Shown: positions 3,360-50,847, counted from the stretch's first letter. The stretch is 64,000 nt of DNA from Candidatus Paceibacter sp. (GCA_013360865.1 JABWAS010000005.1:507-64506), one strand, 5' to 3'. Translations and numbers: made by a program. Notes: generated by a model not told the origin, from the sequence alone.

Positions 3360-3731
3360 ATGATCCAACTTAGAACAATGGTGAATATCGCCGACAATAC
3401 CGGAGCGAAACTGGCCCAGGTATTTCAGGTATTGGGCGGCAGCAAAAGAAGATACGCCCGGATAGGGGATATCGTCGTCGTTTCCATAAAAGCCGCCGAG
3501 CCGCGCAAACAGGTCAAGAAAAAAGAAGTTCATCACGCTCTGGTCGTGCGCCAGAGAAACCCGTATCGCAGAAAAGACGGCTCTTACGTCCGCTTTGACG
3601 ACAACGCCATTGTTATTTTGGACAAAGCCAAGCACGAGCCGCTGGGAGGGAGAGTTTTCGGGCCCATTCCGAGAGAAATCCAGGAAAGGGGCTACTCCCA
3701 AATTATTTCTTTGGCGCCGGAAGTGGTGTAA
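3360..3731 (+). CDS. rplN: 50S ribosomal protein L14
   Basis: 123 aa; MIQLRTMVNIADNTGAK typical L14. Confidence 0.95.
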   Translation: MIQLRTMVNIADNTGAKLAQVFQVLGGSKRRYARIGDIVVVSIKAAEPRKQVKKKEVHHALVVRQRNPYRRKDGSYVRFDDNAIVILDKAKHEPLGGRVFGPIPREIQERGYSQIISLAPEVV

Positions 3732-3837
3732 GTTCCCGCGCTTCGCTTGGTCAAAATAAAAAATTAAAAATAAAATCTAAAAATAGATAAGGAAAAATAA
3801 GATTTTAAATTTTAGATATAAGATTTTAGATCGAAAC

Positions 3838-4143
3838 ATGATTATTAAAAAAGGAGATACGGTAAAAATATTGTCCGGAAAAGACCGGGGTAAAACGGGG
3901 AAAGTTTCTTCCGCCTTGCCCAAATACGGAAAAATACTGGTTGAGGGCGTCAATATCCGGAAGAAGCATTTAAGGCCGAGAAAGCAAGGGCAGAAAGGAC
4001 AGGTCGCCCAGATTGCTTTCCCCATTTCCGCGTCCGCGGCCATGATTGTCTGCAAAGCCTGCGGCAAACCGGCCAGAGCCGGCCAGAAAATGATCGGCGC
4101 CAAGAAAGTCAGGGTTTGCAAGAAGTGCGGAGGCGAGATGTAG
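3838..4143 (+). CDS. rplX: 50S ribosomal protein L24 with C-terminal CxxC..CxxC zinc-ribbon-like extension
   Basis: KOW motif GDTVKILSGKDRGKTGKV; C-terminus CKACGKP...VCKKCGG. Confidence 0.85.
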   Translation: MIIKKGDTVKILSGKDRGKTGKVSSALPKYGKILVEGVNIRKKHLRPRKQGQKGQVAQIAFPISASAAMIVCKACGKPARAGQKMIGAKKVRVCKKCGGEM

Positions 4144-4235
4144 AAAGGCGGGCGAAAGTTGCAAAAAAGCCGGAATTATGTTAGTTAAATAGGGTTGCCG
4201 AAACAAAATTAAGGCCGTTGAAGTTGAATTTTAAA

Positions 4236-4772
4236 ATGAAAAACATCAAAGAAAAATACGAAAAGAACGCCGTTCCGGAGCTGAAGAAAAAATTCGGCTA
4301 TAAAAACATACTTGCCGTTCCCAAAATAAAGAAAGTGGTGGTCAGCGCCGGCGTCGGCTCCTACAAGGATGAAACAAAAAAAGAACTGACCGGAAAATCT
4401 TTGGCGACCATAACCGGGCAGAAGCCGCTCGTCAACAAAGCCAAGAAGTCAATCGCTTCCTTCAAGCTGAGGCAGGGGATGCCGATAGGCTACTCCGTCA
4501 CCCTGCGCGGCAATAGAATGTATGATTTTTTGGAGAAGCTTGTAAACGTGGCGGTGCCCAGAATCAGGGACTTCCGCGGGCTTGATCCGAAAGCGATAGA
4601 CCACAAAGGTTCGATGACGATAGGCTTCAAAGAGCACATCGCTTTTCCGGAAACAGCCGGGGAAGACGTGCGGTCGGCGTTCGGGCTGGGAGTAACGGTG
4701 GTGTCCAGCGCCAAAAGCAAAGAAGAAGCGGCGGAATTATTTAAACTCGTAGGTTTTCCGTTTAAGGTATAA
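4236..4772 (+). CDS. rplE: 50S ribosomal protein L5
   Basis: [37 protein letters not shown] matches L5. Start chosen at the internal Met; the tracked ORF begins at 4218. Confidence 0.9.
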
Positions 4773-4786
4773 TATATATCAACGAC

Positions 4787-4972
4787 ATGGCAAAAACATC
4801 AGTAATAGCAAGATCAAAAAAAGCGCCCAAATACAAATCCCGAGTGGTCAGACGGTGTTTCCGCTGCGGCAGAAAAAGGGGTTATATGAGGGATTTTGAC
4901 TTGTGCAGAATCTGCTTCCGCGAACTGGCCAACGAAGGCATGATCCCCGGAGTTAAGAAATCATCGTGGTAA
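4787..4972 (+). CDS. rpsZ: 30S ribosomal protein S14, zinc-binding type Z
   Basis: 61 aa with CFRCGRK...CRIC four-cysteine motif; position between rplE and rpsH. Confidence 0.9.
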
Positions 4973-4976
4973 AAAT

Positions 4977-5366
4977 ATGGATACAATAGCTAACATGTTG
5001 ACTTTAATAAGAAACGCCCAGACAGCCGGCAAACATACGGTTTCTGTTCCTTATTCCAAAATAAAAATGGCCATAGCCGAAATTTTGACGAAAGAGAATT
5101 TCATCAAAGAAGCCGACCATAAGGGCAAGAAAACGAAAAAGACCATAGATATAATTTTAAATTACGGCGATTCCGGCAAGCCCGCCATCAACAGCATTAA
5201 AAGGGTGTCAAAACCGTCCAGGAGGATTTACGTTCCGGCTGGGAAAATAAGGCCGGTCAGAAACGGTCTGGGAATCCAGATATTGTCCACCTCCGGCGGA
5301 GTTATGACCGGCAAAGAGGCGAAGGAGAAGAAGGTCGGGGGCGAAGTTTTGTGCGAAGTTTTTTAA
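4977..5366 (+). CDS. rpsH: 30S ribosomal protein S8
   Basis: MDTIANMLTLIRNA typical S8 N-terminus; 129 aa. Confidence 0.95.
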   Translation: MDTIANMLTLIRNAQTAGKHTVSVPYSKIKMAIAEILTKENFIKEADHKGKKTKKTIDIILNYGDSGKPAINSIKRVSKPSRRIYVPAGKIRPVRNGLGIQILSTSGGVMTGKEAKEKKVGGEVLCEVF

Positions 5367-5374
5367 TTTATAAC

Positions 5375-5920
5375 ATGAGCCACATAGGAAAAAAAGAAAT
5401 AATAATACCGGAAAAAGTGGAAATGTCTTTGAAAGACGGGGTTGTTTCCGTTAAGGGTCCGCTTGGGGAGATAAAAAAAGATTTTAAAACCGATGACGTG
5501 ACCATCGCGATTGAAAATAAGACCGTTTCCTTCAAACTCAAGAAAAATCCCAAAAATAAAGCCATGTGGGGGACCTGCGCGGCTTATGTAAATAACATGA
5601 TAAAAGGTGTCACGGCCGGTTTTGAGAAAAAACTGACCATAGAAGGTATAGGCTATAAGGCACAGACGGAAGGCAACAAACTTTCTTTGACTGTCGGATT
5701 GTCGCACCCTGTAAAATTGGATATCCCGGAAGGCGTAAAGGTGAAAGTGGAGAAAAACCTTATAAGCGTAACCGGTTTTGACAAGGATAAGGTCGGGCAG
5801 TTTTCCGCCGATGTCAGGGCAGTCAAAAAACCGGAGCCGTACAAAGGGACCGGCATCAAATACGAAAACGAAGTTATCAGAAGAAAGGCCGGCAAGAAGG
5901 CGGCCACGGCGGCAGCGTAG
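5375..5920 (+). CDS. rplF: 50S ribosomal protein L6
   Basis: MSHIGKKEIIIPEKVE... L6-like start (internal Met of tracked ORF 5351-5920); two L6 repeats. Confidence 0.9.
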   Translation: MSHIGKKEIIIPEKVEMSLKDGVVSVKGPLGEIKKDFKTDDVTIAIENKTVSFKLKKNPKNKAMWGTCAAYVNNMIKGVTAGFEKKLTIEGIGYKAQTEGNKLSLTVGLSHPVKLDIPEGVKVKVEKNLISVTGFDKDKVGQFSADVRAVKKPEPYKGTGIKYENEVIRRKAGKKAATAAA

Positions 5921-5963
5921 TAATAGGAGTCAGTGGTTAGCCACTAGCCACTAGTAAAAATTC

Positions 5964-6308
5964 ATGAAAAGATTAATTTCAAAAAAAGAAATAAGGCACA
6001 AAAGAATAAGGGCTAAAATCGCCGGAACGGCGGCTAAGCCCCGCCTTTCCGTTTTCCGTTCCAACAGGCATATTTTCGCCCAGCTTATAGACGACGAAAA
6101 GGGCGTCACTTTGGTTTCGGCGGGCGATTTAAAGAAGGGAAGCAAGGTCAAAAAAACCGATTCGGCTAAAAACGTCGGTCTGGAACTGGCCAAAGCGGCC
6201 AAGGCCAAAAAAATAGAAGCGGTTATGTTTGACAGGGGCGGTTTCAGATACCACGGCAGGGTCAGAGCCGTGGCCGAAGGAGCCCGCGAAGGCGGATTGA
6301 AGTTTTAA
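5964..6308 (+). CDS. rplR: 50S ribosomal protein L18
   Basis: 114 aa; [18 protein letters not shown] typical L18. Confidence 0.9.
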
Positions 6309-6320
6309 TTTTATAAAAAA

Positions 6321-6791
6321 ATGAGCAGACCAAGCAAATTCGGCAGAATGGGCGAAAGAGCGAAAAGCGATTTTGACCAAAAAATAATAGACATAAGGCG
6401 CGTGGCCAGAGTCACCAAAGGAGGAAAGCGGTTTAATTTCCGCGTCACCATCGTGGCCGGCAACAGGAAAGGGGAAGTGGGTGTGGGCATGGGCAAAGGA
6501 TCGGACACCTCCATGGCCATAGAAAAAGCTTTCCGCGTGGCCAAGAAGAATATCATCAAGCCTAAGCTTACGAAAGAATTTTCCATCCCTTGCGAGCTTG
6601 AGAACAAATACGCCAGCAGCCGCGTGGTTGTCCGGCCGGCGAAAGGCCGGGGACTGGTGGCCGGAAGCTCAGCCCGGACGGTGCTGGAGTTGGCGGGGAT
6701 AAAAGACGTCAACGCCAAGTTTTATTCCCGAAGCAAAAACAAGGTCAACAACGCCATGGCGGTGCTCGGAGCGCTGGGCAAGCTTTCCTAA
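6321..6791 (+). CDS. rpsE: 30S ribosomal protein S5
   Basis: 156 aa; RVARVTKGGKRFNFRVTIVAGN and GRGLVAG motifs. rplO follows 5 bp later, so no rpmD (L30). Confidence 0.95.
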   Translation: MSRPSKFGRMGERAKSDFDQKIIDIRRVARVTKGGKRFNFRVTIVAGNRKGEVGVGMGKGSDTSMAIEKAFRVAKKNIIKPKLTKEFSIPCELENKYASSRVVVRPAKGRGLVAGSSARTVLELAGIKDVNAKFYSRSKNKVNNAMAVLGALGKLS

Positions 6792-7233: not shown

Positions 7234-8488
7234 CAGAATAAAAATAATCCTGAAAGACAAAGAATTGCGCAAAAAGATTTTGTTCGTTCTTTTTATGCTC
7301 GCGCTGTTCAGAATCGGCTCCAACATCCCCCTTCCGGGAGTGGACCAGGAAAGGTTGAGCGCGTTTTTGTCCGGCAACCAGTTCTTCGGTTTGCTGGATG
7401 TTTTTTCCGGAGGAGGACTTTCCAATCTTTCCATACTAATGCTGGGCGTGGCGCCTTACATCACCGCTTCCATCATAATGCAGCTGTTTACCATGATTTT
7501 CCCCAAACTCAAAGCGTTGTATCAGGAGGAAGGGGAGGCGGGTAGACAGAAGTTCAACCAGTACTCCAGGCTGCTGGCGGTGCCGCTGGGATTTTTGCAG
7601 GGTTTTGGTCTTCTGGCGATGCTGCAGAATCAGGGCGTGCTTACCGGCCTTACTTTTATGGATAAATTTACCAATATTTCCGTGATGATAGCCGGCAGTA
7701 TGGTGTTGTTGTGGCTGGGCGAGCTTATTTCGGAAAAAGGCATAGGCAACGGAGTTTCGCTTATAATATTTGCCGGAATCGTGTCGTCTTTGCCGCAAAG
7801 CATCAGAAACGCGCTGTATACGTTTGACCCGTCCCAGTTGCCGATGTACGTCATGTTTTTGGCCGCCGCGTTCGCTGTAGTCGCCGGAGTGGTGTTTATA
7901 ACCGAGGCGGAAAGGCCGGTGCCCGTTTCTTACGCCAAGCAAGTAAGAGGCGCGCGAATGTATGGCGGAGGCTCAACCAGAATACCATTGAGAGTCAATC
8001 AGGCGGGTGTTATACCCATAATCTTTGCCATCTCCATACTTCTTTTCCCGCAGATGATCGTTAACATGTTGGCGGGGTTGGGCGGCGGACAGGTCGCGGC
8101 TTTGGCCGGGCAGGTGGTTAATTTCATCAACAGCCCCTGGGTTTACGGAACGCTTTATTTTATCCTGGTTTTCTTCTTCACTTATTTTTACACCGCCGTC
8201 ACTTTTGATCCGCACATGATTTCTGAAAATTTACAGAAGGGAGGCGCTTTCGTGCCGGGCATTCGGCCGGGTCGGCCGACGGCGGAATTTCTGGGCAGGA
8301 TAATCACCAGAATCACCCTTGTCGGCGCCGTGTTTCTGGGAATAATCGCCATCCTTCCATTGGCGGTGAAATCTTTGACGGGAATCGCGTCGCTGGCCAT
8401 AGGCGGCACCGCGTTGCTGATCGTGGTTTCCGTTGTTCTGGAAACGGCCAAACAGATAGAAGCCCAGGTGGTGATGAAGGAATACTAA
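7226..8488 (+). CDS. secY: preprotein translocase subunit SecY
   Basis: 420 aa polytopic membrane protein; SecY signature regions (GISLIIFAGIV, TRIPLRVNQAGVIPIIFA). Confidence 0.95.
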   Translation: MLNRIKIILKDKELRKKILFVLFMLALFRIGSNIPLPGVDQERLSAFLSGNQFFGLLDVFSGGGLSNLSILMLGVAPYITASIIMQLFTMIFPKLKALYQEEGEAGRQKFNQYSRLLAVPLGFLQGFGLLAMLQNQGVLTGLTFMDKFTNISVMIAGSMVLLWLGELISEKGIGNGVSLIIFAGIVSSLPQSIRNALYTFDPSQLPMYVMFLAAAFAVVAGVVFITEAERPVPVSYAKQVRGARMYGGGSTRIPLRVNQAGVIPIIFAISILLFPQMIVNMLAGLGGGQVAALAGQVVNFINSPWVYGTLYFILVFFFTYFYTAVTFDPHMISENLQKGGAFVPGIRPGRPTAEFLGRIITRITLVGAVFLGIIAILPLAVKSLTGIASLAIGGTALLIVVSVVLETAKQIEAQVVMKEY

Positions 8489-13730: not shown

Positions 13731-14043
13731 TTTTAAGTCAATTATAGGATATTTTAATTTCCGTGGCGGCTCAAGCGGTACGGGAGGGAGCGTCTGCCGG
13801 GATTGGGCCATCGCGTTAATTTGCTCCTCTTTTGTTTTGGCGGCAGTTCTGGCCGTTGACGGCTATGTCATCTGGAGAGGTTTGGGCGCGGAGAAAGAGG
13901 TTCCCGCCGCCGAATCCGGCAAGCAGAAATTTTCCGGAATAAGCAAAACCGCGCTGGACAGCGCCGTGGAAAAAATAGCGGATAAAGAAAAGCGGTTCAA
14001 AAACAGCTCCGCCGCGCCGAAAGTGGCCGACCCATCGCTGTGA
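13717..14043 (+). CDS. hypothetical membrane-anchored protein
   Basis: 108 aa ORF overlapping pilO end; one TM helix; no recognisable motif. Confidence 0.3.
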   Translation: MKKVDFKSIIGYFNFRGGSSGTGGSVCRDWAIALICSSFVLAAVLAVDGYVIWRGLGAEKEVPAAESGKQKFSGISKTALDSAVEKIADKEKRFKNSSAAPKVADPSL

Positions 14044-14047
14044 TTTT

Positions 14048-14118
14048 GCCCTCGTAGTTCAAAGCCGACGCTCTGGTCGGCTCCCCGACAACAAAGTTCG
14101 TCGGGGTGGATAGAATAC
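14048..14118 (+). repeat. partial duplicate of tRNA-Arg 5' end (positions 1-15 plus D-loop GGATAGAA) interrupted by a 47-nt hairpin insert
   Basis: GCCCTCGTAGTTCAA at 14048-14062 and GGATAGAA at 14108-14115 match the tRNA at 14403-14475. Between them lies the hairpin CCGACG...CGTCGG. Confidence 0.7.
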
Positions 14119-14120
14119 CT

Positions 14121-14396
14121 ATGGATACAAGTAAAAATGGGTATGTTTATATACTGAAAGACAAAAATGGGAAATTTTATGTTGGAAGCACCGATAATTT
14201 AGATAGAAGGCTGAAGCAGCATAAAAATGGCCACACTCAAACAACTAGAAAGATGAATGATTTCATGTTAGTTTTAATGCAAAAGTATGAATCATTAGAT
14301 TTGGCGCGTAAAGTAGAAAGAAGAATTAAAGATCTAAAACGCAAAGATTATATTGAAAAAATAGTTAATGACGGGTATATCAATATAAAAATTTGA
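14121..14396 (+). CDS. small GIY-YIG nuclease family protein
   Basis: GYVYILKDKNGKFYVGSTDNLDRRLKQHKNG = GIY-YIG motif (GIY...YVG...R...QH). ATG at 14121; the track starts at an upstream GTG (14106). Confidence 0.75.
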   Translation: MDTSKNGYVYILKDKNGKFYVGSTDNLDRRLKQHKNGHTQTTRKMNDFMLVLMQKYESLDLARKVERRIKDLKRKDYIEKIVNDGYINIKI

Positions 14397-14402
14397 TGTT
14401 GC

Positions 14403-14475
14403 GCCCTCGTAGTTCAATGGATAGAACTGGAGACTTCTAATCTCCCGATCGAGGTTCGATTCCTCGCGAGGGCAC
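14403..14475 (+). tRNA. tRNA-Arg (anticodon TCT)
   Basis: Cloverleaf folds by hand: acceptor GCCCTCG/CGAGGGC, anticodon stem GGAGA/TCTCC with loop CTTCTAA, T-arm CGAGGTTCGATTCCTCG. Confidence 0.75.
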
Positions 14476-14539
14476 ATAGTAGTGAGACCTACCGAAAGGC
14501 CTCAGTAGAGCAATATTTCAGATGAGTCAAGACAAAAAA

Positions 14540-14566
14540 CCAGGTTCGAGTCCTGGTGGGTTTTTG
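14540..14566 (+). repeat. tRNA 3'-end-like fragment (T-arm CCAGGTTCGAGTCCTGG plus TGGGTTT)
   Basis: Perfect T-stem/loop with the GGTTCGAGTCC consensus, but no upstream tRNA body. Resembles an attachment-site remnant at the island border. Confidence 0.45.
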
Positions 14567-14780
14567 CTCGCAGTAATAAAAATTCTTTTTGTGTTTTCAG
14601 ATAAAGCAAATTCATAATCAAAAATTGCTTCTGATTTCAAACCCCATCCTCGGCGAAAAACAGTGTGTGGCAGTGCGCTAAAATTCCGAATTCGTTTGGA
14701 AAATTCGGAGAAATCAGTTGGGCACGATGTATTTAATTCTCTTTTGAAATGCAATCCTGTAACATACATAGGGCGATCTT

Positions 14781-14875
14781 GCATAAAGCACAATTTGTGT
14801 TAAAAGAACGATAGAAGAAATCCTGGTGGATTTCTGAAAATTGCACATTTACAACCCAAAAGGAGGTGAATTATG
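14781..14875 (+). repeat. left ~97-bp inverted repeat carrying 5'UTR hairpin, RBS (AAGGAGGTG) and ATG of the radical SAM gene
   Basis: Reverse complement of 20717-20815 is about 97% identical (2 substitutions, 2 single-nt indels). Contains hairpin GAAATCCTGGTGGATTTC. Confidence 0.85.
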
Positions 14876-16096
14876 GAATTCAAGAAGGAATACTTCGCGG
14901 TAGCCAATTCGGAACCACGTGTCACGATCAACGGTATGACTACGGGACGAGAATTTTCTGTGCGCGAATATACATTCGGAGTTCTTGTGCCGGATAGCAA
15001 TCATCCGCTCTCATGCGTCAGTGTGTCTAATAGCTCGCTGAGCATTGATTTGTGGATTGGATGTTCTTGGCAGTGCAGATACTGCCACGTTCAAGACACC
15101 AATCAAGATCTTGCCGATCAGGGCATGATGCCGAAAAAACCACGACGGCGCAATCAGTTTACCGTGGACCAAATCCTCGATGAACTGGTCAAGCATCCGT
15201 TCTTCATCGCTGATGAGACAATCATCAGCATCGGAACGGCAAGCACCGAGCCATTCGCCCCTGCTGTCGTAGACAGCACGTTCGAGATTATGGACGGATT
15301 CGTCCGGCGCGGTCTGCGGAATCCTTTCTGGATCGTCACTAAGGGTGGCGTTCCTAAAGGGAGAAAACTTGACTTCGCCCGCATCTCGAATGCGACGCGC
15401 GGCTTGATGCTGTCGCTGTGCTGGGCAGACAATCCTGACACGATTGAGCCAGCGCATAACAACCGCTTTCTCAATGCTGAGGAAGCCAAGGAAGCAGGAG
15501 CCACCATTGCGTGGTACATGCGACCGATCGTTCCTGAGTGGAGCGGTAATCGGGACAGAATTGAGATGATGATGCTGTGGGTGAAAAAACACTACGGCGA
15601 AGTCATCGATATGATCGTTCCGGGTGGTCTGCGCTGGACGGAAGGTATCGAGAACGGACTGGCGGAGATTCACAAGCTCCCCATGCCTGACATCCCTCGG
15701 GATGACAATGTGAAATCGTTGCCGCAGGAGTTGGTGGATTCCATCTTCTCACTGAGCGCCGAACACTTTCCTGGTATCCCCGTCTATCTCAAGTCATCAT
15801 GCGCCCTTACTCGGATGCTCAGGATCCCGAGCATCACTTCAGTGCAGGTTTTCGCACGGCCAGGATGCGAGGCATCTCGCTGTCCTCTGACCCAACGGAG
15901 AATCTGCGCTCAGGGTTCGGCTTACAACATGACGGCCGAACGAGTACAGGGCATCTTGGATGACCTCGGGATTCCGGCTCATGTAGTGAGTTGGGATATC
16001 AACCACGGACTTGTTACTCACCCCGAGATGAGCAAGTTCACCTACGCAGTCAGGCAGACTGTATTCAAACATCTGGCAATGGGAGGTCCCACATGA
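14873..16096 (+). CDS. radical SAM protein, SplB/COG1533-like
   Basis: CX3CX2C motif in context IGCSWQCRYCHV near the N-terminus. 407 aa; more GC-rich (by eye) than the flanking genome. Stop overlaps the next ATG (ATGA). Confidence 0.65.
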   Translation: MEFKKEYFAVANSEPRVTINGMTTGREFSVREYTFGVLVPDSNHPLSCVSVSNSSLSIDLWIGCSWQCRYCHVQDTNQDLADQGMMPKKPRRRNQFTVDQILDELVKHPFFIADETIISIGTASTEPFAPAVVDSTFEIMDGFVRRGLRNPFWIVTKGGVPKGRKLDFARISNATRGLMLSLCWADNPDTIEPAHNNRFLNAEEAKEAGATIAWYMRPIVPEWSGNRDRIEMMMLWVKKHYGEVIDMIVPGGLRWTEGIENGLAEIHKLPMPDIPRDDNVKSLPQELVDSIFSLSAEHFPGIPVYLKSSCALTRMLRIPSITSVQVFARPGCEASRCPLTQRRICAQGSAYNMTAERVQGILDDLGIPAHVVSWDINHGLVTHPEMSKFTYAVRQTVFKHLAMGGPT

Positions 16097-17211
16097 AGAC
16101 GTATGATGAAATCAAACGCCACTTCGGGACCTTTGGTTTCCAGTGGCAAGAAAGTGTTCCGATTGTAAGCACCAATCCTAAGCTCCTGTTCAACATCTCT
16201 GGCGGTGTCGTGTTTGAGGATACGATCTCTCATGGAGTAATCCCTGAAAAGACCCGTGTCGTTTCGGTTCAGACATGCCTGCGAACGGACGGGTGGGAGA
16301 AGATTGGTTTGTCGGGAAGGCACCACCTTGCATTCGACATGCTCGGCCACTTCTCCCTCTACGAGGGCAAGGAGCAAGAGGTTAAGGAAGCAATAATCGA
16401 GAGTGCCTGGCGTTATCTGACGGTGTGTGTGGGGATCAGTCCTGCCACGCTGTCAGCAACAGTGCATCCGCAAGATGCAACATCGCAGAGAATCTGGGAA
16501 AGGTTGGGTGCCAAAACTGTCAGCAATGACGGAAATGTCACTTTTACTCCGACTCGGAACCGATGCGGTGTTCGCACGGAGATCGTCTGGAGAAATCCGG
16601 ACACGAGTAAGTCAATCGAGCTTTGGAACTTGGTCTTTACCGAGTTTCTGGGCGAGACGCTTTTCGAGTCTCCTCTGGAGAAGATTGCCGCCGATTCTGG
16701 TGCAAGTATTGATCGTATCGTCACGGCAGTCGAATGCTGTAGTAGCGATTATGAAAACACCAATTGGAAAGGCGTGATCGAATCTATCAGTGAGCGATCC
16801 GAGGTAAAGGATCGAGCCATCATGTGCCGCCTCGCAGATCTCGGCAAAGCGGCGGTGCTTCTGGTATCGCAAGGACTTCGACCTGGAAACAAAGCGGCGG
16901 ATTATGTCCTTCGGAAACTCATCCGAGAGGCTTTCATCCTCTGCCGACAGATCTCCATCTCATTTGATGAATTTGTCGTGATATCAGGAAATCAATGGGC
17001 CTCGGTTGATGCGGTGCAAACTGTGTTTGCCGAGGAGGTGTCAAAGTTCGAGAAAGGGCTTGAGCGCGGGAGAAAGGAATATACAAAATTCGTCTCTCGC
17101 AGGAATGGTCGCTTGACTGAATCAGACATCAAGTATCTAACATCCACATTCGGATTTCCGAAGGCTCTTATCGAGCTTGAGGAGTCGAAACGGAACAAGG
17201 AGGCACTATGA
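16093..17211 (+). CDS. alanyl-tRNA synthetase catalytic-domain paralog 1 (truncated, no editing/C-Ala domains)
   Basis: NPKLLFNISGGVVFED, VQTCLRTDGWEKIGLSGRHHLAFDMLGHFSLYEG and C-terminal TSTFGFPKALIE parallel AlaRS class II catalytic-core motifs. ATGA overlap with upstream rSAM gene and downstream ORF. Confidence 0.6.
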   Translation: MKTYDEIKRHFGTFGFQWQESVPIVSTNPKLLFNISGGVVFEDTISHGVIPEKTRVVSVQTCLRTDGWEKIGLSGRHHLAFDMLGHFSLYEGKEQEVKEAIIESAWRYLTVCVGISPATLSATVHPQDATSQRIWERLGAKTVSNDGNVTFTPTRNRCGVRTEIVWRNPDTSKSIELWNLVFTEFLGETLFESPLEKIAADSGASIDRIVTAVECCSSDYENTNWKGVIESISERSEVKDRAIMCRLADLGKAAVLLVSQGLRPGNKAADYVLRKLIREAFILCRQISISFDEFVVISGNQWASVDAVQTVFAEEVSKFEKGLERGRKEYTKFVSRRNGRLTESDIKYLTSTFGFPKALIELEESKRNKEAL

Positions 17212-17963
17212 AAAATAGTTTAGTCTCCAATCTGACTCACGTACTTTGTGAGTTACAAGGCATGAGAGTGCTCTTGCACGTCGGACTGAAGAGGAACTCC
17301 CCCAAAGGCAAGATCGATCTTTTGGCGGGCTGCGACGACGGGGGTATTGAAAAATATTCCCCTCTCATCAAGGCTTTGCTTGAGGATCGGTGGCCAACCG
17401 GAAACTTCTTTGTGTGCGATGACAGTGTTCGCTTTGATCTGCCGACAGGTTCTGGAGGTGTCGCAGTTTGCGACGCAGCCTTGCTTGTTCGGCAGGTTGA
17501 AGGGTGGATCGAGGGTAAGAATCTGGGTGGTCAACATCGCCCATGGGCTACAGGGTACTGGTTGCCAGAAGCGCTGTGCAGAGACTTGGCAACTGCCAAG
17601 ACCTTGTACGATGTTACGGATATCGGTGTCCGACTTAGGGAGCTACTAATTCCATACCCTGTTTCGCTCTCGGAATCTATCGTTGAGCTGTGTACTGATG
17701 AGATCAGGCAGAAACTCTCAATGCTTGAGAAGTTGCACGAAAATGCAACTATCGAACGGGAACTATGCCTATCGGATGTTACGGCCTCGATGGTTCGGCT
17801 CGCATTCGCGCGCAGTCGAAGATACTTCCGTGGATTCCGATCGCTTGAACAACAAGCGAAGCTCCTTGGGTTTTCGGACATGCTCATCTATGAACTCGCC
17901 CTGAAACTCTCAAAGAGAGAAAGGGTGGCGGATGTGGTGAGTGAAATCAAAAGGTTGCTCTAA
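17208..17963 (+). CDS. hypothetical protein, possible nucleotidyltransferase-fold (low confidence)
   Basis: 251 aa; Gly/Asp-rich N-terminal region (LLAGCDDGG, FFVCDDSVRFD) followed by a helical C-terminus. No firm motif assignment. Confidence 0.3.
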   Translation: MKNSLVSNLTHVLCELQGMRVLLHVGLKRNSPKGKIDLLAGCDDGGIEKYSPLIKALLEDRWPTGNFFVCDDSVRFDLPTGSGGVAVCDAALLVRQVEGWIEGKNLGGQHRPWATGYWLPEALCRDLATAKTLYDVTDIGVRLRELLIPYPVSLSESIVELCTDEIRQKLSMLEKLHENATIERELCLSDVTASMVRLAFARSRRYFRGFRSLEQQAKLLGFSDMLIYELALKLSKRERVADVVSEIKRLL

Positions 17964-17993
17964 CTGGAGGCATACGAAAGTGTGCCTCCTTTT

Positions 17994-18602
17994 TTATTCG
18001 ATGATAGTTTTCTCTCCATTTTCAATAAGAGCAGCCTGAGAATTGTTCAAACGCTCCACAGTGACTCTATTTTTTGCTTCAAAAGCCTTTGTTTCTTCTT
18101 CAATTTCTGGAGAATAGTGTGGCAATATAATAAAATTTGTTATTCCGAATCCTGTAAAATCTTCTAGACCAACTTCATTTTTATCTGCAGCAACTTCTCC
18201 TGCAATTTCGATTGACGGACCAATAATGATGCTTCCTGCACTTACGCCTATATATACTCCATTTCGTTTAAGGAGACTTTCGATTGATGCTTTAAAATTT
18301 GATTCTCGAGCAAATTTAAGAAGTTTGAAAGTATTGCCTCCGCAAACATAAATAACATCGTATTCAGCAAAGTCCTTATCGGGTTCGGTTTCTAGGTCTA
18401 TAAAATCAATACGTAAAAATCCCATTTCACTAAATTGTTTCTTGGCGAGTTGGGCGTATTTATTATTTTCTTTTTCTTCTGCAGCTGTCGTTACTATAGC
18501 AACGGCATAATTTTTATAATCAGAAAATAAGCCCTTGAACCTTTCGGTAACTGGCCCAGAAGAAAGTCCTGTTGATGTGAGAAATATAAAACCTTTACTC
18601 AT
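17994..18602 (-). CDS. peptidase S51 family protein (dipeptidase E / cyanophycinase-like)
   Basis: VCGGNTFKLL and GVSAGSII (Ser nucleophile) motifs typical of PepE/S51. Conspicuously AT-rich relative to the rest of the cassette. Confidence 0.65.
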   Translation of the reverse strand: MSKGFIFLTSTGLSSGPVTERFKGLFSDYKNYAVAIVTTAAEEKENNKYAQLAKKQFSEMGFLRIDFIDLETEPDKDFAEYDVIYVCGGNTFKLLKFARESNFKASIESLLKRNGVYIGVSAGSIIIGPSIEIAGEVAADKNEVGLEDFTGFGITNFIILPHYSPEIEEETKAFEAKNRVTVERLNNSQAALIENGEKTIIE

Positions 18603-18624
18603 GCCTTCATTCTATATGATTTTT

Positions 18625-18665
18625 GTAATTTTTTCAAAAAAATAACCCGCCTCGTGGTTTACACA
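18625..18665 (-). terminator. probable rho-independent terminator after AlaRS-like paralog 2 (minus strand)
   Basis: Minus-strand reading ACCCGTCTTGTGTAAACCACGAGGCGGGT followed by TATTTTTTTG. Confidence 0.4.
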
Positions 18666-18686
18666 AGACGGGTCAGTGTTTGTTGA

Positions 18687-19979
18687 TCACTTCTTCGGTC
18701 GGCGTGATACATCCCGATGTTCCTCGATGAGTTTGAGAAACTCAGCCTTCGGAAAAGGGACGCCGTGACGAGCACAGAATTCCTCCAGAAGGTCTTCGGG
18801 AATGCCCATGCCGGTTTTCAAAGTGAATGCGTGTTGTGCATCCAACTCCTTGGCCGCGACGATCTTGTCGAGATACTTTCTGCTGCGATGCATCAGCTTT
18901 TCGAAGCCTTCACGCTCCTCGCTGAGCCAGTGTGCGATAACAGATTTCTGACGAAAGGTCATGTCCTTGTTATCGATCACTTCACTGAGAGAGTCTGCCC
19001 ATTCTTGAAGAATAGTCAGATTGATCCCTCGCAGGAAGATGCCGATCATCGCTCGCCGAAGCGCGCGACGGAGAAGGTATCCCTCCCGAGTATTGCTCGG
19101 AACAATACCCTCTCGAATCATCAGGATTGAGGTCTTGATGTGGTCGAGAATGACCCTTGTCCATGCTGTATCACCAATCCGCTGATTGATGAGTTGATAG
19201 GACGGGTCGTACTGATCGATCTCGTGGATTGAAGCGCGGTCTTGCAGGATCATGGCGAAGCGCTCAAGACCTGCGCCCGTATCCACACACTTCATCGGGA
19301 GAGGGGAAAAAAATCCCTGCTCGTCTTTGTAGTATTGCATGAACACTCCGGCATTCCAGATCTCGATATGCCGCCCAGGTACCAGCACGTCGTCCGTTTC
19401 TTTCTCGGCGAATTCCTCGCCTCGATCGAAGAAAACCTCCGTGCAGGGACCGCATGGGCCACTGGTTCCCGCCGGACCCCAGAAGTTGTCTACTGGCGGT
19501 CGGCCAATGATTCGATCTCGTGGCAGGAATTTCTCCCAGATGCGAGCCGATTCTTCGTCGCTTGGCACACCCGGCAGACTTTCGTCAGCCATGAATACCG
19601 TAGCAGAGAGGCGGTCGACTGGAATCCCGAAACCCTCGGTGATGAGTTCAAAGGCGAGTTCGATAGCTCGTTCCTTAAAATAATCTCCGAATGACCACGA
19701 CCCCATCATACGGAAGTTTGTTCCGTGATAGGAATCGCCGACGCTTTCGACGTCCACGAACCTGATACAGTCCTGCATGTTCGTCAGACGCGGGTATGGA
19801 GGCTTCGCCTGGCCCGTGAAGCAGGGCTTGAGCGGAGCCATGCCCGAGTTGATGAACATGAGGGTCGGATCATTCCTTGGAATAATCCCAGACGGCTGGA
19901 TGAATTGATGATCGTGGTTGAGGAAATGTTCCAGAAATGTCTGGCGTACCTCCTCGGTGGTTTTGTACGGTGGTGTCAC
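18687..19979 (-). CDS. alanyl-tRNA synthetase catalytic-domain paralog 2 (truncated, 430 aa)
   Basis: RNDPTLMFINSGMAPLKP, WSFGDYFKERAIELAFE, GPCGPCTEVFFDRGEE, IEIWNAGVFMQYY and TGAGLERFAMILQ reproduce the AlaRS aminoacylation-core motifs. Lacks editing and C-Ala domains. Confidence 0.75.
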   Translation of the reverse strand: MTPPYKTTEEVRQTFLEHFLNHDHQFIQPSGIIPRNDPTLMFINSGMAPLKPCFTGQAKPPYPRLTNMQDCIRFVDVESVGDSYHGTNFRMMGSWSFGDYFKERAIELAFELITEGFGIPVDRLSATVFMADESLPGVPSDEESARIWEKFLPRDRIIGRPPVDNFWGPAGTSGPCGPCTEVFFDRGEEFAEKETDDVLVPGRHIEIWNAGVFMQYYKDEQGFFSPLPMKCVDTGAGLERFAMILQDRASIHEIDQYDPSYQLINQRIGDTAWTRVILDHIKTSILMIREGIVPSNTREGYLLRRALRRAMIGIFLRGINLTILQEWADSLSEVIDNKDMTFRQKSVIAHWLSEEREGFEKLMHRSRKYLDKIVAAKELDAQHAFTLKTGMGIPEDLLEEFCARHGVPFPKAEFLKLIEEHRDVSRRPKK

Positions 19980-19981
19980 TG

Positions 19982-20719
19982 TTAGCCTCCTTTTTTGAGA
20001 TAGTGAATGTTTTGTGTTATCTGATCTTCTGTTGTCATACCAATAACAACAGATGTGCCGAGAGTAAGTGCGTTTTGTGTAATCATCTCGGCCGAGTGCG
20101 GGCCAGTGAGCAACTTCCCCTGTTTAAACAAACTTCTCAAGAGAATCTCCTTTTTAAGATCGAGTAGATATGGGAGCTGTTGAAGCACCCAAGTTTGCTC
20201 AGTGTTGAAAGGAGCCGCAATCACGTCGATGTGCGACAAAACCGTTTCAGCGACGGAACATGAGAAATTGTCGGGCAGGGAAATTCCTACGCGCTTGACT
20301 ATGCCTTCATACTTAAGCCCGTTAAGGCATTCAAGGATTGCTATTGATTCTGACGACCACGTGGGTAGCCAGTTGTGCAGAAGTACCGCGTCGATAGAAG
20401 ATCGCCGTAGCCTTTCCAATGATTCGTACACGCTTTGATAGATACCATCTCGTGAGTAGAATCTTTGGATCAGTTCAGGTGCTTCCAGATTCGGTTTTGA
20501 TGCTGCCGGAATTTTGGTCACAATGACCGCATCTTCCGGTAGACATGTACCAAGCATCTCCTCGACTTTGCCTCCACCATAGACGGCCGCCGTATCGAAA
20601 CGACGAATACCGGAGCTGATGGCGAAAAGCAGAAGCGATTCAATGTAGGCGGGGGACAAGTTTTTGAACTGCCCTCCAAGTTGCCACGTACCGAAGTAGA
20701 GGCGATTAAACCATGCCAT
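19982..20719 (-). CDS. aldo/keto reductase family oxidoreductase
   Basis: FGTWQLGG and FDTAAVYGGGKVEEMLG motifs; 245 aa. Start codon lies inside the right inverted repeat. 2-nt gap to the downstream AlaRS-like gene. Confidence 0.7.
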   Translation of the reverse strand: MAWFNRLYFGTWQLGGQFKNLSPAYIESLLLFAISSGIRRFDTAAVYGGGKVEEMLGTCLPEDAVIVTKIPAASKPNLEAPELIQRFYSRDGIYQSVYESLERLRRSSIDAVLLHNWLPTWSSESIAILECLNGLKYEGIVKRVGISLPDNFSCSVAETVLSHIDVIAAPFNTEQTWVLQQLPYLLDLKKEILLRSLFKQGKLLTGPHSAEMITQNALTLGTSVVIGMTTEDQITQNIHYLKKGG

Positions 20720-20815
20720 AATTCACCTCCTTTTGGGGTTGTAAATGTGCAATTTTCAGAAATCCACCAGGATTTCTTCTATTGTTCTTTTAACACAAAT
20801 TTGTACTTTATGCAA
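20717..20815 (-). repeat. right ~97-bp inverted repeat carrying RBS and ATG of the aldo/keto reductase gene
   Basis: Reverse complement matches 14781-14875 at about 97% identity. Confidence 0.85.
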
Positions 20816-20837
20816 GATTGCACACTTGGGCCGACAG

Positions 20838-21296
20838 ATGGAGTCTGTCCTAACTAAGCAAGTAGGTGATGCCTTCAGAGAGTTTATTTCTAAAGAAGGT
20901 ATCTCATATGAAACCACTGGAGATGCCACGCTGGGTGACGAGAACATAATTCATGCGCACTGGTCGTGTGTTATTGGCGGAAAATTCGGTCCATCCGTCA
21001 CGCTTTATAGCTTGGTCATGTGGGGAAAATCACTTTCGGAATATCTTGACGATCGAAAGAACGACCCCGAGTTGCCAAATGCAAAAGTCACGGATTTGAA
21101 GTTTTCTATGCACAATACCAGTGGGGGTATAAAAATTGTATTGAATCAGGGGCAGTCCGAAAAACTTTTATCAAGGATTGAGGAGGAGATAAAGAAAAAT
21201 AAGGAGCTTGAGGAATATAGGAAGAAATGGCAAGAACTCTACCACAACGGCTCACTCCTTATTGGGAAGATAGATTCTTGGCTTTCTTCAGAATAA
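20838..21296 (+). CDS. hypothetical protein
   Basis: ~152 aa ORF (internal Met of tracked ORF 20745-21296) immediately outside the right inverted repeat; no recognisable motif. Confidence 0.4.
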   Translation: MESVLTKQVGDAFREFISKEGISYETTGDATLGDENIIHAHWSCVIGGKFGPSVTLYSLVMWGKSLSEYLDDRKNDPELPNAKVTDLKFSMHNTSGGIKIVLNQGQSEKLLSRIEEEIKKNKELEEYRKKWQELYHNGSLLIGKIDSWLSSE

Positions 21297-21298
21297 AT

Positions 21299-21745
21299 AT
21301 GGAAGAAAATATCATTATTGAAAAAATAGAATGCGTGGTGCGCGATTCCGCAACCGAACAAATCGACCACCTAAGAAGGGGTCGGGTTGAACGTAATTTT
21401 ACGACATACTTGGCAAATAAACTTAAACCAATTTTTGAGGATGGAACTATTACTGTTGACCCCTTTTATAACAGGCATGGGGATGCGGCGAAAAGATTGA
21501 ACGGCAGTTTGATTGAACTTGATATCGCGATTCATGAACAAGGGGTTGATCACAATAATCTAGTCGCCATTGAACTCGAAACTAACAATAAGCCGACACG
21601 TGATGATCTGTGGAAAATAGAAAGACTGACCAAAGAACTTGATGGCTATGGTTACAAGCTCGGGTTATTTGTGGTCTCTGGAATAAATGATAAGGCTGGA
21701 GAAGTTATCGCGATGGAGTGGTATAAAAATGGTAAACCTTTGTAA
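21299..21745 (+). CDS. hypothetical protein
   Basis: ~148 aa; starts 2 nt after the previous stop; no recognisable motif. Confidence 0.4.
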   Translation: MEENIIIEKIECVVRDSATEQIDHLRRGRVERNFTTYLANKLKPIFEDGTITVDPFYNRHGDAAKRLNGSLIELDIAIHEQGVDHNNLVAIELETNNKPTRDDLWKIERLTKELDGYGYKLGLFVVSGINDKAGEVIAMEWYKNGKPL

Positions 21746-21911: not shown

Positions 21912-21985
21912 GGGCGCTTAGCTCAGTTGGTTAGAGCGTCTCGTTTACACCGAGAAGGCCGGGGGTTCGAATCCCTCAGCGCCCA
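21912..21985 (+). tRNA. tRNA-Val (anticodon TAC)
   Basis: Acceptor GGGCGCT/AGCGCCC, D-arm AGCTCAGTTGGTTAGAGC, anticodon stem TCTCG/CGAGA with loop TTTACAC, T-loop GGTTCGAATCC. Confidence 0.8.
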
Positions 21986-22067
21986 CAGAATTTAAGTTTG
22001 GGGGTACCCTTGTGGCACTTTTGCCGTTTCTATATCATCACTTTTGCGGGCTATAACCAAGAAATAT

Positions 22068-47412: not shown

Positions 47413-47484
47413 GGACGATTAGCTCAATGGTAGAGCGCTACATTCACACTGTAGAGGCTAGAGGTTCGATCCCTCTATCGTCCA
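47413..47484 (+). tRNA. tRNA-Val (anticodon CAC)
   Basis: Acceptor GGACGAT/ATCGTCC, D-arm AGCTCAATGGTAGAGC, anticodon stem CTACA/TGTAG with loop TTCACAC, T-loop GGTTCGATCC. Confidence 0.65.
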
Positions 47485-47644
47485 CTTATCGAAGCAAAGG
47501 CCGTAGGCTTGCCCCGTACTTCCGCCGCAGGCGGATAGTAAGGGGTTCAATCCCTACATCGCGCACTAAAATCTTACTTTTGAGCCAGTAAAGAAAATTG
47601 CGGACGTGCTTGGCGTGGCGTTTGATGATTTAATTAAGTAAATT

Positions 47645-48745
47645 ATGGCAAATAAAAATCTTACAAACGCAAAACGGGCAAAGAACGACGAGTTTTATAC
47701 CCAATACGGCGATATTCAGAAAGAGATTGCGGCGTATCTGGAATACAACCCCGATGTGTTTCGGGGCAAAGTGGTGTATTGCAACTGCGACGATCCGTTT
47801 GAAAGCAATTTTTTTCGCTATTTTGTCCTCAATTTCAATAAGATTGGATTAAAACAGCTTATCACCACCAGCTACAAACCTTCGCCCGTAGCCAACACGC
47901 AACTGGGATTATTTGGCGACGACAAAACTCTCACGAAAGCAAAAGGACGCCCCAAAATAACGGCCAACAAATTTATTATCAACGAAGCGCGCGACATAAA
48001 CGGCGACGGCGAGTTTAACTTGAAGGATATTGCCCAACAGTTAAAGGCAAACAAACATAATGAATGGGCGCCACTGGAAGGCGACGGCGATTTCCGCAGC
48101 GATGAATGCATAAATCTGCTCAAACAATCTGACATTGTGATAACAAATCCGCCATTTTCTCTGTTTCGCGAATATGTTAAGCAGCTTTTTGATTATGATA
48201 AAAAATTTTTGATTATTGGCAATATGAATGCAATTACATATAAAGAGGTTTTCCCAAAAATTAAAGAAAACAAGATGTGGCTTGGGGCAACGAATTTTAA
48301 TACCGGCATGTATTTTCAAGTTTCTAATGATTTCGTTTATGCTGATACATATAAATTTGAACGTGAACAAAATGGCGTAAAAGTAAATCGCGTTCCTGGT
48401 GTTTGTTGGTTTACCAACCTAGACCATGGGCGCCGTCATCAACCATTGCCGCTTATGACAATGGAAGAAAATTTAAAATACAGCAAACACAAAGAAATCA
48501 AAGGCAAAAAGGCGTATGATAAATATGACAACTACGATGCCATAGAAGTGCCGTTCACCGACTCCATCCCGAGTGATTATAACGGCGTAATAGGCGTGCC
48601 GATTAGTTTTTTGGATAAATATAATCCTGACCAGTTTGAAATTGTTAAATTTAGACACGGAAGCGATGACAAGGATTTAAGATTAAAAAATGGAACATGC
48701 CCGTATTTTAGAATTTTGATTAAACATAAGAGAGTGGGGAAGTAA
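47645..48745 (+). CDS. N6-adenine DNA methyltransferase, EcoRI-methylase-like family
   Basis: Catalytic motif IV VITNPPFSLF; N-terminal KNDEFYTQYGDIQKE segment characteristic of EcoRI-family (gamma-class) adenine methyltransferases. Confidence 0.65.
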   Translation: MANKNLTNAKRAKNDEFYTQYGDIQKEIAAYLEYNPDVFRGKVVYCNCDDPFESNFFRYFVLNFNKIGLKQLITTSYKPSPVANTQLGLFGDDKTLTKAKGRPKITANKFIINEARDINGDGEFNLKDIAQQLKANKHNEWAPLEGDGDFRSDECINLLKQSDIVITNPPFSLFREYVKQLFDYDKKFLIIGNMNAITYKEVFPKIKENKMWLGATNFNTGMYFQVSNDFVYADTYKFEREQNGVKVNRVPGVCWFTNLDHGRRHQPLPLMTMEENLKYSKHKEIKGKKAYDKYDNYDAIEVPFTDSIPSDYNGVIGVPISFLDKYNPDQFEIVKFRHGSDDKDLRLKNGTCPYFRILIKHKRVGK

Positions 48746-48788
48746 TATGAAAGTAGCAGATAAAAACAAAAATGAAAGAAGGGTTTAT

Positions 48789-49373
48789 ATGAAAAAAATA
48801 GCAAATAAGCAACTTGCCAATTTATTGGGTGCTTCTGAGGATGTGAAGCGCGCTACTGTTATTTTTAAGAGCCTGAAAAATAATGAATTTACAACAGGAA
48901 CGACCAAAAAAGATAATTGGCTAAGAGAAATTCTTTTGACATTTATTGTTATCAAGCTGTATACACTTTTTGATAGTCATAATAACGCATTGAGTTTAGA
49001 AAAATTTTTGAAACACAATGCTTGCCATGTTACAAATAGTGAAAATATAAAGGATATTAGGGGTAGATTAGACAATATAAAAAAGTGCAATCAATTACTT
49101 ATTACACAGATTGAAAATAATAGGCACGAAAAAGGACATATTCCCCAAAAATCGGAACTTGGTGTAACAAAAGAGGTTGCAGATAAAATAAGAGAGTTTG
49201 GAAAAATGACTGGGAATGAGGAATACAAGAACCAGAAATCAGTTACTGATGAATATATGAGATTTTCTGTTGGAAACTTTCCGGCAGATAAAGCTAGTAA
49301 ATTGGCAGAGGAATTACAAAAATTAATAATGGGTATTGGGTATCCAAAGACATTAGAAAGTCGTAATTCTTAA
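48789..49373 (+). CDS. hypothetical protein with HEPN-like Rx4H motif (Abi-like)
   Basis: NNRHEKGH contains R-x4-H; all-helical. Start chosen at the internal Met of tracked ORF 48747-49373; sits directly after the methyltransferase gene. Confidence 0.35.
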   Translation: MKKIANKQLANLLGASEDVKRATVIFKSLKNNEFTTGTTKKDNWLREILLTFIVIKLYTLFDSHNNALSLEKFLKHNACHVTNSENIKDIRGRLDNIKKCNQLLITQIENNRHEKGHIPQKSELGVTKEVADKIREFGKMTGNEEYKNQKSVTDEYMRFSVGNFPADKASKLAEELQKLIMGIGYPKTLESRNS

Positions 49374-50842: not shown

Positions 50843-50847
50843 ACACC

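Follow-up and report, generated by a model that had tools for sequence, protein, structure and literature searches.

The 64,000-nucleotide (nt) stretch of Candidatus Paceibacter sp. analysed here (GCA_013360865.1, JABWAS010000005.1:507-64506), hereafter the window, carries a 6-kb cassette of six intact genes, five of which form two convergent operons. Two of these genes encode truncated paralogs of alanyl-tRNA synthetase (AlaRS), which we call Ala1 and Ala2. The positions of the open reading frames (ORFs) were verified in the window. The first operon, on the plus strand, encodes a radical S-adenosylmethionine enzyme (rSAM, 407 amino acids (aa), 14873..16096) with a fold like that of spore photoproduct lyase (SPL), followed by Ala1 (372 aa, 16093..17211), a member of class B1 of the AlaRS paralogs, and by a two-domain nucleotidyltransferase (NTase, 251 aa, 17208..17963) that is KNTase/Lnu-like and has a DUF4037-type C-terminal helical domain. 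On the minus strand, the second operon encodes a short aldo/keto reductase (AKR, 245 aa, 19982..20719) and Ala2 (430 aa, 18687..19979). A reading made from the DNA alone, hereafter the sequence-only reading, had described these operons as translationally coupled. We confirmed the ATGA overlaps between the rSAM stop and the Ala1 start (16093-16096) and between the Ala1 stop and the NTase start (17208-17211), as well as the 2-nt gap between AKR and Ala2 (19980-19981).

The sixth gene encodes a peptidase of family S51 (PepE/Lmo0363-like, 202 aa, 17994..18602) and also lies on the minus strand. A terminator-like hairpin after Ala2 (14-bp stem then T-run, minus strand, 18643..18675) divides it from the AKR-Ala2 operon, and a sigma-70-like promoter match (TTGAAA-17-TAGAAT, 10/12, minus strand, 18609..18637) stands immediately upstream of it. 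This promoter is a consensus match only, and the region as a whole has no more promoter matches than expected from shuffled sequence. The same promoter and terminator scan found an intrinsic-terminator-like hairpin (10-bp stem then T-run, plus strand, 17966..17989) between the convergent NTase and S51 genes. The cassette sits between two tRNA genes, tRNA-Arg(TCT) at 14403-14475 and tRNA-Val(TAC) at 21912-21986, as had been noted before. No full-length alaS was found in the 64-kb window.

The cassette is bounded by a terminal inverted repeat of about 105 nt. Its arms, found by repeat search and blastn at 14773..14879 (plus strand) and 20713..20821 (minus strand), are 88-97% complementary (repeat pairs I1-I3). 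The sequence-only reading had missed this repeat, which nevertheless bounds the unit almost exactly at the coordinates it had given (14781-20815). Each arm contains a hairpin with an 8-bp stem (AGAAATCC-TGGT-GGATTTCT), the ribosome-binding site AAAGGAGG, an ATGG start and the first coding bases of the gene that follows, rSAM on the left and AKR on the right. Since both arms carry this leader, the rSAM-Ala1-NTase and AKR-Ala2 operons converge from identical leaders. A blastn comparison of the window with a second locus, L001 (GCA_023150695.1, 99% identical to the window; loci are numbered with the prefix L), matched the repeat arm over 106 nt at 95% identity. The search of Rfam at E≤1 found only two tRNAs and no match to the leader, of which the 26-38 nt adjoining the ribosome-binding site are the sole part conserved in loci with another gene order; on these two results we rejected a riboswitch or known RNA. 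A scaffold peptide of the PEARL type was also rejected, because the intergenic gaps, of 30 and 84 nt, cannot accommodate such a small ORF. Nor did L025, where Ala1 is followed by a gap of 586 nt, show a convincing ORF there.

Both paralogs belong to the AlaRS catalytic family, as had been proposed. The profile PF01411 (tRNA-synt_2c) matched Ala1 at 6.9e-43 (profile positions 10-403 of 552) and Ala2 at 8.4e-103 (positions 1-430 of 552), and the motifs quoted in the sequence-only reading are present in the ORFs. Ala1 matched AlaRS entries of the PDB at 1e-26, and Ala2 matched E. coli AlaRS441 at 1e-73. The domain search found neither an editing domain (tRNA_SAD, PF07973) nor a C-Ala domain in either protein, and both score under the cut-off of 457 bits of the NCBIfam alaS equivalog TIGR00344 (152.6 bits for Ala1, 352 bits for Ala2). 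By these measures, neither gene is a canonical alaS. Nor are they the frameshifted pieces of one alaS, the circumstance under which the earlier proposal was to be abandoned: both match the N-terminal 400-430 positions of the profile, they are encoded on opposite strands, are about 25% identical to each other and have low ratios of nonsynonymous to synonymous substitutions (dN/dS).

We measured residue conservation on alignments of 98 Ala1-family and 116 Ala2-family sequences, using E. coli AlaRS numbering. In Ala2, all alanine and ATP residues are invariant (R69, W170, E183, E209, N212, D235, G237, R242), and the equivalent of D400 is not conserved. Ala2 is also the most constrained gene of the cassette (dN/dS of 0.02-0.06). 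Among the best 120 Ala2 homologues, which extend down to 41% identity, almost all have 417-440 aa and all come from bacteria of the Candidate Phyla Radiation (CPR); the exceptions in length are three shorter, probably partial sequences and two of about 470 aa. The tRNA-recognition domain is whole in both Ala1 and Ala2, including P300, N302, Y307 and R310.

Ala1 has a dN/dS of 0.10-0.13, and we found 104 homologues with a length of about 370-390 aa. Its family keeps thirteen AlaRS residues invariantly (R69, H86, H87, F90, M92, E183, E209, W211, N212, V214, D235, G237 and R242), and it keeps all the AlaRS-specific core residues (R69, W170, N212, D235, G237 and the motif-3 Arg) except W170. This tryptophan, which lines the alanine pocket of AlaRS, disappears with a deletion of residues 169-177. 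Other changes are M43 to G, N44 to V (96 of 98 sequences), N95 to H and C181 to R, with G43, H95 and R181 invariant. Ala1 thus has the appearance of an enzyme with an active adenylate site, whose side-chain pocket has been rebuilt and probably enlarged, and with such a remodelled pocket its substrate may not be alanine. Ala1 has also deleted the GGKH loop (71-74), which is absent from both families. We considered this loss as a sign that tRNA is not used and rejected it: the loop is missing from 7 of 12 short (about 600-aa) AlaRS that have editing domains, so its deletion is not diagnostic.

The rSAM has an invariant C64x3C68x2C71 motif and four conserved C-terminal cysteines (C310, C332, C337, C345). 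Its sequence profile matched nothing in the PDB, and the fold search alone was informative. The structure was predicted from relatives found in the representative-sequence search, and its nearest solved fold was SPL, an enzyme acting on DNA dinucleotides; the earlier description as SplB-like is therefore right at the level of the fold. At the level of sequence, the matches to SplB and to the Rv2578c and PA0069 families are weak, and the rSAM differs from these proteins by its extra C-terminal Cys-rich region, the fusions of its relatives to AKR or NTase, and the absence of a DNA-repair context. It scored 21.3 bits with NF038135 (cut-off of 430), and TIGR04070 matched two of 13 rSAM members, at 4e-4. 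An exhaustive phmmer search of 1.84 billion representatives returned no more than 223 relatives with E≤1e-3, of which 33 reached E≤1e-30.

The 251-aa protein had been listed as a possible nucleotidyltransferase, and its fold agrees: an N-terminal Pol-beta NTase domain is followed by a C-terminal helical domain, in the manner of small-molecule O-nucleotidyltransferases of the ANT(4')/Lnu-like type. Pfam gave no hit for the protein itself, yet 20 of its 35 homologues match DUF4037. The AKR matched PF00248 at 7.4e-28 and has the D-Y-K-H tetrad (FDTA, VYG, VTK, LLHNW), which upholds its earlier assignment. These three enzymes are found fused in every pairwise combination: AKR with rSAM (P0366-P0368, P0376), rSAM with NTase (P0357, P0360), and NTase with AKR in a 493-aa protein of Firmicutes. 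The three fusions are strong evidence that NTase, AKR and rSAM act as one unit.

More distant relatives of the rSAM (25-28% identity; P0406, P0438, P0451, P0425) are fused to N-terminal TIR or nucleoside-2-deoxyribosyltransferase-like domains. In L098 (5832-9123), one such distant relative adjoins a TIR-WD40 gene. In these proteins, PADLOC recognises the TIR parts only. These associations hint that the wider rSAM clade handles nucleotides in conflict systems, and the TIR-radical-SAM pairs may be a conflict system that has not yet been described.

The peptidase was correctly assigned to S51 from the start: PF03575 matched it with 101.5 bits (6.8e-29, cut-off of 23.9), and the GxSxG nucleophile is present as GVSAGS. 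It scored 58.9 bits with the PepE equivalog, under the cut-off of 156, and its PDB matches are 3l4e, 6iru and 1fy2. In the relatives from Firmicutes, S51 is replaced by an S66 peptidase, whose gene always stands beside Ala1. This S66 is of the MccF type, with matches at about 1e-36 to BA_5613, Lmo1638 and MccF, against 1e-14 to LdcA, which represents the murein LD-carboxypeptidases. MccF, the S66 peptidase of microcin C7 self-immunity, cleaves the amide between the amino acid and the adenylate mimic. The S51 gene stands apart from the five others in GC content (0.351 vs 0.47-0.53). It also diverges faster between cassettes, with 68-71% aa identity against 89-94% for Ala2, and may have been acquired or exchanged independently. 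The composition of the cassette as a whole, which the sequence-only reading had called foreign to the genome, is not significantly different: its GC content is 0.490 against 0.454 in the rest of the window, a difference of about 1.3 standard deviations, and 6 of 92 segments of equal size were as high.

The cassette is a horizontally transferred unit. When the window was compared by blastn with other genomes, only the repeat-to-repeat stretch (14772-20817) aligned, and the flanks never did. Identity reached 91.6% at the nucleotide level to L017, a metagenome-assembled genome (MAG) labelled Saccharibacteria, and 85% to L018, an Uhrbacteria MAG without Ala2. Gene by gene, it ranged from 66 to 90% in MAGs of Nomura-, Parcu-, Buchanan- and Yonathbacteria. 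At least 13 sequencing runs contained Logan contigs whose length is exactly 5,938 nt and which correspond to the window between the repeat arms (14828-20765) at 99.9-100% identity. The cassette is also mosaic, because divergence is uneven between genes; in L019, for example, Ala2 is 94% and AKR 64% identical. Ala2 remains 93-95% identical in aa between differently classified CPR MAGs. The dN/dS values of 0.02-0.24 across the six genes, lowest in Ala2, indicate purifying selection.

Scanning the GTDB species genomes with the Ala1 alignment, we identified 19 Ala1-family loci at 35% identity or more. All 19 have an S51 or S66 gene beside Ala1, and 17 also encode AKR, rSAM and NTase. Nine of the loci from Patescibacteria (L016-L024, 62-91% identity) encode AKR, rSAM, Ala1, NTase and S51, with Ala2 in six of them, and two loci from Saccharibacteria (L032, L033) have the complete set of six at lower identity. 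The most frequent order is Ala2<- | ->AKR-rSAM-Ala1-NTase | <-S51 (e.g., L016, L019, L020, L023), and all six genes are co-directional in L097. The window, L017 and L018 share the rearranged order bounded by the repeat. MAGs of gut Bacilli and Clostridia encode a variant without Ala2, in which the NTase::AKR fusion (493 aa) is followed by rSAM, Peptidase_S66 and Ala1, and three loci have S66 and Ala1 only (L011, L029, L030). The set of genes recognised in the window is thus one conserved cassette that recurs across CPR MAGs, with a variant in gut Firmicutes. We rejected carriage by plasmids or phages: searching PLSDB and INPHARED with Ala1 by tblastn returned canonical alaS only, at 29% identity or less, and scanning IMG/VR returned two unrelated AlaRS hits (24-26%) and no counterpart of the cassette. 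PADLOC gave no hit for any of the six genes, and a known anti-phage defence system was discarded on this basis.

The association of a second AlaRS paralog with a peptidase extends beyond this cassette. Each of the eight Ala2-family loci that we examined has, no further than a few kb from Ala2, another, divergent AlaRS paralog and a peptidase of family S51 or S66, and the surrounding tailoring genes differ. At four of the loci, this other paralog is of a different class, B2, which has the motif FTNATITPFK, has lost E183, has W211 replaced by L and, in two of the four, D235 replaced by E. The B2 pairs, each with an S66 or S51 peptidase, are at 6823-9296 in L014, 6628-9278 in L015, 8001-15030 in L095 and 6808-9302 in L096. 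Their tailoring genes encode methyltransferases, S-adenosylmethionine decarboxylase, a carbamoyltransferase, a class IV aminotransferase (Aminotran_4), a WelO5-like 2-oxoglutarate oxygenase, YqcI/YcgG and a truncated class II synthetase (tRNA-synt_2). A fixed core of two AlaRS paralogs and a peptidase with variable tailoring genes suggests a family of biosynthetic clusters.

AlaRS is considered to be among the synthetases that are evolutionarily most stable and poorest in paralogs (PMC5388404), and our literature search found one characterised paralog of its catalytic core, AcmF of the ascamycin pathway. The same search found nothing that links Patescibacteria with AlaRS paralogs or with the gene set of the cassette. 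AcmF, from Streptomyces sp. 80H647, is a truncated AlaRS-like protein with aminoacylation and tRNA-recognition domains (PMC12945691; Zheng et al. 2024, ACS Catal 14:3533). It has lost residues for ATP and alanine (N219Q, D232E and most ATP-binding residues), and it moves alanine from Ala-tRNA, made by the AlaRS of the cluster, AcmD, onto a nucleoside sulfamate (PMC12945691). This yields an aminoacyl-nucleoside, a mimic of Ala-AMP, from which the hydrolase AcmE removes the alanyl group again (PMC12945691). The sequence-only reading had described the pairing of two AlaRS-core paralogs with an SplB-like rSAM as not known from any characterised pathway. With AcmD, AcmF and AcmE known, two AlaRS homologues together with a hydrolase are not without precedent, and AcmD would correspond to Ala2 and AcmF to Ala1.

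As described in the literature, AcmF resembles Ala1 in having only the aminoacylation and tRNA-recognition domains and in being encoded with a partner AlaRS and a hydrolase. It differs in that Ala1 keeps N212, D235, R69, F90, E209 and R242 in all 98 sequences; the losses of activation residues in class B2 (L014, L015, L095, L096) are closer to what is seen in AcmF. The two systems differ in further respects. Ala2 is truncated, the hydrolase is S51 or S66 here and an alpha/beta-hydrolase in AcmE, and the rSAM, NTase and AKR have no relation to the enzymes of the sulfamate pathway. CPR bacteria and gut Firmicutes are the hosts of the cassette, which is a compact mobile unit.

Other known systems share single elements with the cassette. 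The S66 next to Ala1 in Firmicutes is of the MccF type, whereas the window encodes S51, and the MccB-type adenylyltransferase and the peptide precursor gene of the microcin system have no equivalent here. MshC, YadB/GluQRS and the SerRS-like amino acid:carrier-protein ligases, the model put forward in the sequence-only reading, are truncated synthetase cores like Ala1. These ligases keep the adenylate chemistry and move the amino acid to a non-tRNA acceptor. Unlike Ala1, they derive from other synthetase families, none has the AlaRS core, and none is linked to the rSAM, NTase and AKR trio. Ala2 is best compared with E. coli AlaRS 1-441/461 and with the mini-AlaRS that is functional in Tupanvirus (PMC10036535), which also consist only of a catalytic and a tRNA-recognition domain and have the full set of alanine and ATP residues. 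Unlike the viral enzyme, Ala2 is bacterial, borne on a cassette and always paired with a second paralog.

The most plausible role of the cassette is a non-translational aminoacylation. More specifically, we favour, with a probability of roughly 0.4, a small-molecule pathway that centres on a nucleotide and has an AlaRS-core paralog as its key element. Here, NTase, AKR and rSAM would together make or remodel a nucleoside- or nucleotide-type scaffold. Ala1 would couple an amino acid to this scaffold, either through its own aminoacyl-adenylate, as the sequence-only reading had proposed, or from an aminoacyl-tRNA that Ala2 may make. Ala2 might supply Ala-tRNA, act as a product-insensitive AlaRS, or do both. 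The separately transcribed S51 (MccF-type S66 elsewhere) would hydrolyse the aminoacyl linkage, for self-protection or for product release. The SPL-like fold of the rSAM, the TIR and deoxyribosyltransferase fusions of its relatives, the fold of the NTase and the MccF-type S66 all point to a nucleotide as the substrate; a characterised MccF-type member hydrolyses aminoacyl-nucleotides. What class of substrate and which amino acid are used, in what sequence the steps run and what the cassette is for (antagonism, defence or a metabolite) are inferences.

Several points weigh against this pathway. None of the cassette's members has a known product, substrate or activity, and such metabolites are not known from CPR bacteria. 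Genes for an exporter, a regulator or a scaffold peptide are missing from the cassette, and no PADLOC, Rfam or NCBIfam model recognises the system. The analogy with a tRNA-dependent transferase is imperfect for the Ala1 class, since Ala1 retains the residues that AcmF lost. Ala2 is dispensable for the core, because it is not near the cassette in L018, L021 and L024; the versions from Firmicutes have none either. The peptidase of the window is S51, not the MccF-type S66, and family S51 is known for Asp-specific dipeptidases and cyanophycinases. Finally, when compared with the reference motif hG[GS]-x9-13-Dh[DE]h plus a third carboxylate, the CPR NTases have G26-x10-D37-x-L39, with an invariant Leu at the second catalytic carboxylate and D71/D72 conserved; the fusion NTases of Firmicutes keep the canonical GS-x9-DVD.

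The cassette could alternatively repair or modify RNA ends, in particular those of tRNA. Ala1 and Ala2 would then bind the acceptor stem, the NTase add nucleotides, the rSAM repair or modify a pyrimidine lesion, and the peptidase remove aminoacyl or peptidyl groups. Although both paralogs keep the whole tRNA-recognition domain and SPL, the nearest fold to the rSAM, works on nucleic acid, the fusion of the NTase to AKR, which reduces carbonyl groups of small molecules, speaks against this role. So does the MccF/PepE type of the partner peptidases, which are not peptidyl-tRNA hydrolases, and no RNA ligase, kinase/phosphatase or RtcB-type gene was found in any locus. We consider RNA-end repair unlikely.

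We place in the same low range the possibility that the cassette is a resistance or detoxification island, in which an antibiotic-type NTase, a reductase, a hydrolase and a spare, drug-insensitive AlaRS would act against aminoacyl-nucleoside or AlaRS-targeting toxins of foreign origin. The ANT(4')/Lnu-like fold of the NTase, the MccF-type partner peptidase, the mobility of the cassette and the separate transcription of S51 suggested by its promoter match are consistent with such an island, and extra copies of aminoacyl-tRNA synthetases are a known resistance device (PMC5388404). Yet, the translational coupling and the three pairwise fusions point to one sequential pathway with a common substrate. 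Moreover, Ala1, the most constant member, has an invariant active site and a destroyed alanine pocket and cannot replace AlaRS, whereas Ala2, which could be the spare copy, is the dispensable member.

A role in cell-wall or peptide metabolism, in which Ala1 would ligate an amino acid (e.g., L-/D-Ala or Asp) to the peptidoglycan stem or another peptide and S66 or S51 would trim it, with the remaining genes as accessories, seems rather improbable. Family S66 includes the LD-carboxypeptidases of murein recycling, S66 and Ala1 form a minimal pair in L011, L029 and L030, and all hosts (CPR, Bacilli, Clostridia) belong to monoderm-type lineages. However, S66 is far closer to the MccF type than to LdcA, murein chemistry offers no parallel to the tight linkage of an SPL-like rSAM with a KNTase-like NTase, and Mur or Fem genes are not consistently nearby. 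It is very unlikely that Ala2 is a housekeeping mini- or split AlaRS with unrelated neighbours, or that the two ORFs are fragments of one alaS: the intact alanine site and lowest dN/dS of Ala2, the absence of another alaS from the window and the functional mini-AlaRS of Tupanvirus (PMC10036535) would fit, but Ala2 moves with the cassette at high identity across CPR MAGs, is missing near it in L018, L021, L024 and all Firmicute versions, adjoins a second paralog and a peptidase in 8/8 loci, and overlaps Ala1 in the profile from the opposite strand.

If the nucleotide-centred pathway is taken one step further, the cassette, exchanged by CPR bacteria and reduced-genome gut Firmicutes, might make a new aminoacyl-nucleotide antimetabolite. 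Ala1 would then be a new class of enzyme, with adenylate formation retained, the side-chain pocket rebuilt and an acceptor other than tRNA, the fused NTase-AKR-rSAM set would provide the scaffold, and the mini-AlaRS together with MccF/S51 would give self-protection. We regard this extension as possible but doubtful. No small-molecule pathway of a warfare or defence type would have been assigned before to CPR organisms, where a chemical weapon or defence is unexpected because these bacteria are episymbionts with minimal metabolism. It would also uncover a whole family of clusters that share a core of two AlaRS paralogs and a peptidase and vary in their tailoring genes. By analogy with ascamycin, the nucleotide-centred pathway would be known in kind, as aminoacylation of a metabolite by a synthetase paralog with a dedicated synthetase and hydrolase, and new in its host group and its set of enzymes. 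Should an aminoacyl-nucleotide be made, it would widen the non-translational chemistry of synthetase-derived enzymes.

The three truncated-core families (Ala2, B1 and B2) are widespread in Patescibacteria, B1 also occurs in gut Firmicutes, and they always stand beside S51 or S66 and variable tailoring enzymes. Two orphan families obtain from the cassette a first clue to their function, the rare SPL-like rSAM and the DUF4037-type nucleotidyltransferases. As a six-gene unit of 6 kb, it is experimentally tractable for heterologous expression.

Some observations concern the surroundings of the cassette and of related loci. Directly upstream of tRNA-Arg and the cassette, an ORF of 96 aa (14106-14396, plus strand) encodes a GIY-YIG/T5orf172 nuclease next to the insertion site, which may be homing-type or related to mobility. 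In L001, tRNA-Arg(TCT) is broken after about 15 nt by a 155-nt insert (8177-8331), at the equivalent of position 14417/14424 in the window. Within the insert lies another, different tRNA-Arg(TCT) with GC-rich hairpin sequence on its flanks. The insert could reflect heterogeneity between strains, a chimeric assembly or a small insertion that carries a tRNA. On the other side, two small ORFs lie between the cassette and tRNA-Val, outside the inverted repeat (20838-21745, plus strand), and occur in no other cassette locus. The second of them (21227-21745) has a weak PADLOC match to PD-Lambda-3_A (1.7e-4).

Further along the window, a stretch of low GC content (0.33-0.41, 47645-53000) adjoins tRNA-Val(CAC) at 47413-47485. 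Encoded there are an adenine methyltransferase of the EcoRI type (47645-48745, 1e-128) and a Fic/DOC protein (49691-50842); the stretch probably represents another island that was acquired. Among the other loci, serine recombinase (Resolvase/Recombinase), Replic_Relax and IstB-like genes were found near clusters with AlaRS paralogs, at 13870-15519 (minus strand) in L013 and at 143-928 and 4345-5118 in L095. Such recombinase neighbours, within a few kb in Saccharibacteria-type loci, fit an island-type mobility. L013, from Saccharibacteria, also encodes a class I synthetase of 959 aa (3680-6559, minus strand; tRNA-synt_1/Anticodon_1, LeuRS-like), in which a NUDIX domain is listed between the synthetase segments, an unusual insertion.

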